The position numbers were made by a program, and so were the translations under genes. From Desulfuromonas versatilis (lineage in GTDB: Bacteria > Desulfobacterota > Desulfuromonadia > Desulfuromonadales > NIT-T3), in contig NZ_AP024355.1 in NCBI RefSeq assembly GCF_019704135.1, positions 3,393,034-3,417,033 on the forward strand: a DNA stretch of 24,000 nucleotides. Direction: 5' to 3'. Each line of letters opens with the position of its first letter. The stretch's first letter is position 1. Below the pieces are notes generated by a model, which was not told the DNA's origin, did no database searches, and saw nothing but the letters and a program-made list of their open reading frames with translations. Below are positions 6,464-8,035 of the stretch, one piece after another.

Positions 6464-7609
6464 ATGACGGATAAACCTCTGGCAAACCCCGGCGCCACGT
6501 CGGGCAGCTGCTGTTCCCCTTCCCGGGAGCCCGGGGCAGGCAGCGCCCAAGCCGGCCGGCCCGGCGAGCGTCCCGGCTATCGCGTCTGGCCCTTTGTCTC
6601 AGGCTGGCTGGCGACCCCCGTGGGCCGGGTCCCCCAGGTCAAAACCAACCTGGATGCAGGCGATCGGTTCGGGCGCTGGCAGATGCGTTGGGGGTTGGGG
6701 CGCCAGCGTTACCGCGTCGCGCCGGGGCTCTACGCCGTGGGGAACCCCGGCCCGGGCTCCCCGGTGCTGGTGTCGGCCAACTACAAGCTCAGCTTCGACG
6801 TGTTGCGCAGCAATCTCCCGGGCCTGGACGCCTGGCTGCTGGTCATCGAAACCCACGGGATCAACGTCTGGTGCGCCGCGGGCAAGGGGACCTTCGGCAC
6901 CGCCGAGATCGTCCATCGGGTCGCCGCCGTCCGGCTTCCCGAGCTTATCGAGCACCGCACCCTGGTGGTTCCGCAACTGGGCGCCCCCGGGGTCGCCGCC
7001 CACCAGGTCGCCCGAGGCTGCGGTTTCCGCGTGGTTTACGGCCCGGTGCGGGCCGCGGACCTGCCCGCCTTTCTCGCCGCGGGGATGCAGGCCACGGCGC
7101 AGATGCGCCGGGTCAGCTTTTCAACCCTCGAGCGCCTGGTGCTGACCCCCGTGGAACTGACCGGGATCCTCAGGACCGCCCTTTGGGCCGCTCTGGCGCT
7201 GCTGTTCCTGGGCGCCATCGGCAGCGGGGGATTCTCCCTCGCGGGCGCCCTGCAGCGCGGCGGCGCCGCCATCCTCGCCGGTCTCGGCGGGGTGTTCACC
7301 GGGGCCGTGCTGGTGCCGCTGCTGCTGCCGTGGATGCCCTGCCGAGCCTTCGCCGCCAAGGGGGCGCTGGCCGGTATGGCGCTCGCGTTTGGCGCCCTGG
7401 CAGTGTTCGGCCCCCGGCTCGGCTGGCTCAACAGCACCGCCCTGCTGCTGGCCCTACCGGCGGTAGCCTCCTGGTGCGGGATGAACTTTACCGGCTCCAG
7501 CACCTTCACCTCCCCATCGGGAGTGGAGAAGGAGATGCGCCGGGCCATCCCCCTGCAGGGCGCAGCTCTGCTGCTGGCCGGGGTGCTCTGGGTTGTCGCG
7601 GGGTTTTGA
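6464..7609 (+). CDS. hgcA: HgcA, corrinoid protein of the mercury methylation pair (CFeSP-like corrinoid-binding domain plus C-terminal transmembrane domain)
   Basis: The product contains PGLYAVGNPGPGSPVLVSANYKLSFDVLRSNLPGLDAWLLVIETHGINVWCAAGKGTFGT, which includes the diagnostic N(V/I)WCA(A/G)GK cap-helix motif (Cys137, codon 6872-6874). The C-terminal ~155 aa form about five hydrophobic helices. An hgcB-type ferredoxin follows. Confidence 0.85.
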   Translation: MTDKPLANPGATSGSCCSPSREPGAGSAQAGRPGERPGYRVWPFVSGWLATPVGRVPQVKTNLDAGDRFGRWQMRWGLGRQRYRVAPGLYAVGNPGPGSPVLVSANYKLSFDVLRSNLPGLDAWLLVIETHGINVWCAAGKGTFGTAEIVHRVAAVRLPELIEHRTLVVPQLGAPGVAAHQVARGCGFRVVYGPVRAADLPAFLAAGMQATAQMRRVSFSTLERLVLTPVELTGILRTALWAALALLFLGAIGSGGFSLAGALQRGGAAILAGLGGVFTGAVLVPLLLPWMPCRAFAAKGALAGMALAFGALAVFGPRLGWLNSTALLLALPAVASWCGMNFTGSSTFTSPSGVEKEMRRAIPLQGAALLLAGVLWVVAGF

Positions 7610-7753
7610 TTAAATCGATACGAATTCCGGCAAGGCCGTCGGCCGGGGCGAATCTGACGGATCGGTGGGATCAGGCGCGGCCGGCGGGCAGGACGCGCGA
7701 AAGACACAGTCGGGGGAGTCGAAGCCGCCGGCTTTACAGATGAGGGCCTCTAA

Positions 7754-8035
7754 ATGAAGGAACTGCGTTACCTGCAGGGGGTCAGCACCCTGACACTGGA
7801 CGTACCGACCTGCATCGGCTGCGGGATGTGCAGCCTCGTCTGCCCCCACGCGGTGTTCCTGGTCGAACAGAAAAAAGCTCTCATCACCGATCGCGACCGC
7901 TGCATGGAATGCGGCGCCTGTGCCCGCAACTGCCCGGTGAGCGCCATCAGCGTAAAGGCCGGGGTCGGCTGTGCCAGCGCCATCATCAAGGGCTGGCTCA
8001 CCGGCAGCGAACCGAACTGCGACTGCGGCGGCTGA
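7754..8035 (+). CDS. hgcB: HgcB, 2x[4Fe-4S] ferredoxin partner of HgcA
   Basis: The 93-aa product has CIGCGMCSLVCP and CMECGACARNCP (two CX2CX2CX3CP motifs), an extra Cys in GVGCAS (residue 73) and a Cys-rich C-terminal tail NCDCGG. A GAGGG RBS is present and the gene lies immediately downstream of hgcA. Confidence 0.85.
   Translation: MKELRYLQGVSTLTLDVPTCIGCGMCSLVCPHAVFLVEQKKALITDRDRCMECGACARNCPVSAISVKAGVGCASAIIKGWLTGSEPNCDCGG

Follow-up and report, generated by a model that had tools for sequence, protein, structure and literature searches.

The question raised by this locus is whether two adjacent open reading frames (ORFs) in the genome of Desulfuromonas versatilis strain NIT-T3, within a 24,000-nucleotide stretch of contig NZ_AP024355.1 (hereafter the window, in whose coordinates all positions are given), encode a genuine mercury-methylation system of the hgcA-hgcB type. 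An initial annotation of the window had read them as such a pair and this identity was upheld: the products of 381 and 93 amino acids passed the curated HgcA and HgcB profiles, while the rival models, for fused HgcAB-like and CFeSP gamma proteins, did not reach their cut-offs. We place the probability that the pair is the canonical, unfused hgcA-hgcB mercury-methylation system of D. versatilis at about 0.93; at the level of sequence and structural model, the assignment to unfused HgcA and HgcB rests on profile discrimination, gene structure and fold comparison.

Both ORFs were recovered at the coordinates and lengths first reported. The hgcA gene (6464..7609, + strand) starts with ATG and is predicted to encode a methyltransferase subunit that binds a corrinoid and has a membrane domain at its C-terminus, while hgcB (7754..8035, + strand), which also starts with ATG and lies directly downstream on the same strand as a separate ORF, is predicted to encode its 2x[4Fe-4S] ferredoxin partner. 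Family discrimination was performed with the curated NCBIfam equivalog hidden Markov models (HMMs) and their cut-offs for HgcA, HgcB and the fused HgcAB-like proteins, along with the model for the gamma subunit of the corrinoid iron-sulfur protein (CFeSP). The 381-amino acid protein matched NF040863 (HgcA_corrinoid) with 450.2 bits against a cut-off of 275 (E = 3.9e-135), residues 56-380 being aligned to positions 1-323 of the 325 in the profile, and the 93-amino acid protein, on which Pfam placed 4Fe-4S domains, matched NF040864 (HgcB_ferredoxin) with 130.9 bits against a cut-off of 99 (E = 1.1e-38).

The corrinoid-binding domain of HgcA (6713..7084, + strand; approximately residues 84-207) is a homolog of the domain found at the C-terminus of the CFeSP large subunit and contains the cap-helix motif NVWCAAGK (6863..6886, + strand; residues 134-141), which was present in its exact form, GINVWCAAGKGTFGT, with Cys137 encoded by TGC at 6872-6874, as had been claimed. 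Residues N134 to G142 were invariant across 68 aligned homologs, and the motif was found in all of the 34 related loci scored. It is shared with one of the closest known systems, the DND132_1056/1057 pair of Pseudodesulfovibrio mercurii (= Desulfovibrio desulfuricans) ND132, where Cys93 of the cap helix is the equivalent residue with a described role (PMC7305189, PMC11588087); by analogy, Cys137 is predicted to be the lower axial Co-thiolate ligand.

The membrane domain (7145..7603, + strand) was delimited by hydropathy, which showed hydrophobic stretches within residues 230-381, and by an AlphaFold model built with the 68 homologs, in which helices were observed at residues 228-251, 259-290, 296-342 and 353-380. 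As the helix at 296-342 takes in two hydrophobic stretches around G316-P-R-L-G-W, it was divided at approximately 296-318 and 320-342 and HgcA was counted as having five membrane helices, in agreement with the estimate of about five in the initial annotation, with the ND132 protein, which has the same combination of a CFeSP-like corrinoid domain and a five-helix membrane domain, and with the number described for HgcA (PMC11588087). The loop NFTGSSTFTSPSGVEKEMRR, which is conserved, joins helices 4 and 5, and the segment from M340 to E357 holds residues invariant in the 68 homologs. The model (mean predicted local distance difference test score, pLDDT, of 84.8; predicted template modelling score, pTM, of 0.80) consists of an alpha/beta domain followed by a helical membrane domain, in which pLDDT was mostly above 85. 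The top Foldseek match was 9a0b_A, a published integrative model of HgcAB (54% identity over 324 columns, E = 8e-23), which is presumed to represent the ND132 protein, for which a model is given in PMC7305189.

The ferredoxin carries the two CX2CX2CX3CP motifs and the additional Cys73 attributed to it from the outset. The first motif (7811..7846, + strand; Cys20/23/26/30) reads CIGCGMCSLVCP from residue 20 and the second (7901..7936, + strand; Cys50/53/56/60) reads CMECGACARNCP from residue 50; following the assignment made for ND132, the cluster ligands are 20/23/26/60 and 50/53/56/30 (PMC7305189). The ninth conserved cysteine, Cys73 (TGT, 7970..7972, + strand), lies within GVGCA approximately 12 residues past the second motif, and its replacement in ND132 (C73A) abolishes methylation (PMC7305189). 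All nine conserved HgcB cysteines (20/23/26/30/50/53/56/60/73) occupy the same positions in ND132.

Every residue required by the scheme developed for ND132 is present in the two proteins, and the chemistry described here is that of the ND132 literature, while family membership, the catalytic and cluster residues, architecture, gene organisation and vertical syntenic inheritance are the subject of the present analysis. On this scheme HgcA would be a corrinoid protein anchored in the membrane, with cobalamin bound in its cytoplasmic domain and the thiolate of Cys137, in the cap helix, as the lower axial ligand of the cobalt, and HgcB would act as a dicluster ferredoxin that reduces the corrinoid cobalt to Co(I). 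A methyl group from S-adenosylmethionine (SAM) would then be transferred to Co(I) to give CH3-Co(III) with Cys-thiolate ligation, and from there to Hg(II) bound by thiolates of HgcB (Cys73 together with Cys89 and Cys91 of the flexible tail), after which CH3Hg+ would be released. SAM, and not methyl-tetrahydrofolate, is the demonstrated methyl donor, a revision of the 2013 picture (PMC11588087). We infer by analogy that the D. versatilis strain makes methylmercury, and this is supported by the observation that 8 of 9 cultured hgcAB+ methanogens methylated mercury, the exception carrying a fused gene (PMC5893877).

The tail of HgcB (Cys89-Asp-Cys91, 8018..8026, + strand), which is followed by two glycines and the stop codon so that the protein ends ...EPNCDCGG, differs from this otherwise regular picture. 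The initial annotation had described it as Cys-rich, and while the two tail cysteines are present, the tail was found to be Cys-poor for the family, with two cysteines against the three or four observed in all of the other 119 among the 120 closest homologs. By a criterion of a terminal Cys or Cys-Cys the protein falls outside the HgcB family pattern, while by one of at least one tail cysteine it falls within it. The CxC of the tail is kept in 119 of the 120 and is itself probably functional, to judge from this conservation. The sequence comparison suggests that the shortened tail is the one real departure of this locus from the norm.

Several observations weigh against the reading of the pair as a functional methylation system. 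Of the 120 closest HgcB homologs, 118 terminate in C or CC, the window protein and one other being the exceptions, and the loss of both tail cysteines in ND132, where the terminus is Cys94-Cys95 and not Cys89-Asp-Cys91-Gly-Gly, cuts activity by 95% (C94A/C95A; PMC7305189). The non-coding spacer between hgcA and hgcB (7610..7753, + strand) is atypical in that, at 144 bp, it was the longest among 30 measured loci, the remainder ranging from overlapping genes to 138 bp. The searched literature contained no methylation assay of this strain, nor did any paper in it tie D. versatilis to mercury methylation, the species paper itself never mentioning mercury, hgc or corrinoids.

The most probable of the alternatives builds on these points, and holds that the genes are true hgcAB orthologs but methylate weakly or not at all, due to loss of the terminal HgcB cysteines or to poor expression across the long spacer. 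In its favour, the window HgcB was alone among the 120 close homologs in having just two tail cysteines, and it ends with CDCGG, where nearly every HgcB ends in CC according to a preprint (bioRxiv 10.1101/2022.07.06.499078), and both the ND132 double mutant and the length of the spacer point the same way. Against this, Cys89 and Cys91 lie at most five residues from the C-terminus and one tail cysteine suffices in ND132 (PMC7305189), so that by analogy Cys89 and Cys91 would be expected to be enough for activity; the CxC is almost universally retained; tail length and cysteine number vary widely across the HgcB family; a good ribosome-binding site (GAGGG) sits 7 nt 5' of the hgcB ATG; and neither gene shows any frameshift or decay. 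On balance, a pair that methylates weakly or not at all is considered unlikely, and an active canonical hgcA-hgcB pair is preferred.

A second alternative is that the 381-amino acid protein is a CFeSP subunit (AcsC/CdhE-type) of the acetyl-CoA pathway. The sole Pfam assignment on HgcA was PF03599 (CdhD; residues 83-175), a generic corrinoid domain, the PDB sequence matches were all to CFeSP large subunits (2h9a/4c1n/4djd; residues 84-208), and the UniRef name is CO dehydrogenase/acetyl-CoA synthase delta-subunit domain protein. However, the protein scored only 64.9 bits against the CFeSP gamma model (NF003195, cut-off 306), only residues 83-207 being aligned and these to profile positions 322-446, the last 125 or so. 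In Foldseek comparisons with the CFeSP chains 2ycl, 4c1n, 2h9a and 4djd the probability was 1.00, but over only some 130 columns at 25-26% identity, consistent with a homologous Rossmann-like corrinoid domain with a cap helix as seen in the CFeSP large subunit (AcsC/CFeSP gamma; 2h9a, 2ycl, 4djd). The latter differs in having an N-terminal [4Fe-4S] domain and a TIM barrel, has neither a membrane domain nor the cap-helix cysteine (PMC7305189), and uses methyl-tetrahydrofolate via MeTr where HgcAB uses SAM. The window protein has both the cysteine and the five-helix membrane domain, and there were no acs or cdh genes near hgcAB. The CFeSP reading is refuted by the HMM scores and architecture and can be regarded as highly improbable.

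Similarly improbable is membership of the fused HgcAB-like paralogs (Pyrococcus furiosus, Methanococcoides methylutens), which have the same domain types in a single polypeptide, form a separate clade defined by the fusion itself (PMC10083202) and include two tested members that both fail to methylate (for P. furiosus, see PMC5893877 and PMC10083202): the partial matches to NF043039 (HgcAB_like; 184.4 bits for HgcA and 52.6 bits for HgcB) each lie far below the cut-off of 285, and remain below it even when summed, and this reading is refuted both by these scores and by gene structure, as a stop codon and 144 bp divide the genes in the manner of the unfused clade. The membrane helices, which had been put forward as a point to check, are as first annotated, and so is the separate-gene structure. 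Read-through of the hgcA TGA was also rejected, since it would add 16 residues before another TGA, with further stops before hgcB.

The N-terminal extension of HgcA (residues 1-55) falls outside the NCBIfam profile and contains Cys16-Cys17 (codons TGC TGT; 6509..6514, + strand). According to the preprint cited above, HgcA is in most cases a selenoprotein and has a CU motif at its N-terminal end, with CC in the other proteins. In the 34 related loci an in-frame TGA giving a C-U dipeptide was observed in 16, as PCUGP in those of Geobacter type and as CUPP in loci L003 and L015, and a CC was found in the N-terminal region of 100 of the 120 closest HgcA homologs, mostly as repeated CCPP. The ND132 protein is reported to have a PCUGP selenocysteine motif where the window protein has Cys-Cys. 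The DNA of this region was too divergent to be paired by alignment with the dipeptides of relatives, and at the protein level the proximal CC of close homologs is the favoured counterpart. From these comparisons, Cys16-Cys17 appears to be the all-cysteine, selenocysteine-free form of the reported CU/CC motif, as a single CC for which no recoding would be needed. An upstream, selenocysteine-containing extension of hgcA is impossible, as the stop codon of the preceding gene, aroG, lies in frame 21 nt upstream with no cysteine codon preceding it; that this stop (TGA, 6440-6442) shares its reading frame with the hgcA ATG was treated as a coincidence and not as a C-U site. Read-through of the hgcB TGA by selenocysteine insertion was likewise rejected, as the extension (PRSQPEPGGDL...) has no cysteine for more than 20 residues, is unlike the tails of relatives and runs antisense into lhgO.

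Loci L003 (at approximately 1990-2010) and L015 (at approximately 9890-9900), which belong to the two closest genome relatives, carry, upstream of the called hgcA starts, an in-frame TGA within GCUPP and PCUPP, respectively, and the DNA past the TGA is nearly identical between the two. From the sequence, this looks like a selenocysteine-containing N-terminal extension of HgcA with a motif unlike the PCUGP published as perfectly conserved.

Proteins from other members of the Desulfuromonadales (Desulfuromonas carbonis, P0030; Geoalkalibacter, P0081 and P0112; and the metagenome-assembled loci L003 and L015) belong to the same family at 57-68% identity, with D. carbonis at 68%. They share with the window pair an RPG(Y/L)R(V/L)WPFV motif at the HgcA N-terminus, the ...EP(S/N)CDCGG... 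core of the HgcB tail and the aroG-hgcAB synteny, and differ in usually having several CCPP repeats or, in L003 and L015, an extra upstream C-U dipeptide, in HgcB tails which run on to a terminal C or CC, and in spacers which are mostly shorter than 90 bp. It is possible, though doubtful, that D. versatilis has a natural minimal-cysteine HgcAB: the pair is free of selenocysteine and has a single N-terminal Cys-Cys, and its HgcB tail, with two cysteines, has fewer than any other among the 120 closest homologs and a terminus other than C or CC.

The spacer itself was searched for other content. There were no repeats, no Rfam match and no similar sequence in the rest of the window or in 35 loci, and with these searches empty the readings of the spacer as a repeat, a remnant of a mobile element, a small ORF or a known RNA were rejected. 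The only structure observed was a weak to modest hairpin (z = -2.1), and the spacer is otherwise unremarkable.

An aroG-type 3-deoxy-D-arabino-heptulosonate 7-phosphate (DAHP) synthase gene (5375..6442, + strand; NF009395, 531 bits) ends 21 bp upstream of hgcA, an adjacency also found in loci L001-L005, L009, L015 and L017. The sole sigma-70-like site within 5100-8300 lies at 5284-5312, upstream of aroG, and on this sequence evidence co-transcription of aroG with hgcAB is plausible. The genes on both sides are housekeeping in nature: upstream are prs, a tRNA, ispE, two multihaem cytochromes, DivIVA, YggT and aroG, and downstream of hgcAB are a convergent L-2-hydroxyglutarate oxidase gene (lhgO), a small HTH_17 ORF and a GGDEF response regulator, among others. 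The order divIVA-yggT-aroG-hgcA-hgcB-(lhgO)-HTH-GGDEF recurs in L001, L002, L003, L015 and L017, and in part in L004, L005 and L009. This synteny indicates that hgcAB was vertically inherited within the Desulfuromonadales and not recently transferred; recent horizontal acquisition is unsupported, as synteny is kept and the G+C content at third codon positions in the coding frames of hgcA and hgcB (0.87 and 0.85, respectively) is similar to that of neighbouring genes.

There was no ArsR- or MerR-type regulator adjacent to hgcAB, the only nearby DNA-binding ORF being that for a 65-amino acid HTH_17 protein. This ORF (excisionase-type; 9271-9468, - strand) is kept downstream of hgcAB in L001, L002, L003, L015 and L017 with 59-72% identity. 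Loci L005 (hgcA at 9827-11122), L009 and L021 carry an hgcA with no ferredoxin bearing two 4Fe-4S motifs within the examined locus, the gene downstream of hgcA in L005 being DnaJ/CbpA-like; these are orphan hgcA genes of the kind reported for a few Deltaproteobacteria (PMC10083202).

Elsewhere in the window, a permease of the ArsP_1 family (PF03773; 16811-18362, - strand, with 18414-19295, - strand) lies beside an FmdE-domain protein and an AAA ATPase, and matches the SaoE and SO_0444 metal efflux models weakly, below cut-off. The block is probably an insertion, since L017 lacks it at the position expected from synteny. L008 and L011 carry distant ArsP_1 homologs 3-4 kb upstream of hgcA. In close relatives the permease and hgcAB are not in synteny, and the permease was rejected as an hgcAB-linked exporter. 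Two adjacent ORFs (1884-2831 and 2928-3794, both - strand) gave weak matches, below cut-off, to multihaem c-type cytochromes (DmsE/CctA-like), a pair which fits the cytochrome-rich genome described for D. versatilis. A thiamine pyrophosphate (TPP) riboswitch (Rfam RF00059, 73 bits; 21452-21557, + strand) was identified immediately 5' of an operon for thiazole biosynthesis, thiF-thiS-thiG (21560-22408, 22409-22627 and 22757-23527, + strand).

The description of the system in the initial annotation as described rather than novel was borne out by the databases. The 381-amino acid protein is 100% identical to WP_225911529.1, named mercury methylation corrinoid protein HgcA in RefSeq, and the 93-amino acid protein is 100% identical to WP_221249322.1, named mercury methylation ferredoxin HgcB; the corresponding GenBank records for strain NIT-T3 are labelled hypothetical protein (BCR05932.1) and ferredoxin (BCR05933.1). 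The Hgc names are found only in RefSeq, and neither the GenBank labels (from DFAST) nor UniRef carry them. The identification is correct and already known, and adds nothing conceptually, as hgcAB is common in the Desulfuromonadales and the two proteins already have their names in RefSeq.

What the pair does provide is a pointer to D. versatilis, an electrogenic marine Fe(III) reducer that is in culture and has its genome fully sequenced, as a probable source of methylmercury, which is useful for strain-level risk assessment and offers an easy target for assay. The one mildly informative feature is the natural variation in accessory cysteines, in the form of a selenocysteine-free N-terminus and a short HgcB tail, which could be used to test models of mercury delivery. 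If the strain were found to methylate weakly or not at all, it would test, in a natural setting, the part in mercury delivery that has been proposed for the HgcB tail, and to our knowledge no other non-methylator in culture has an unfused pair; if it methylates normally, the terminal Cys-Cys and selenocysteine would be dispensable and the selenocysteine-free pair would be a convenient candidate for heterologous biochemistry.

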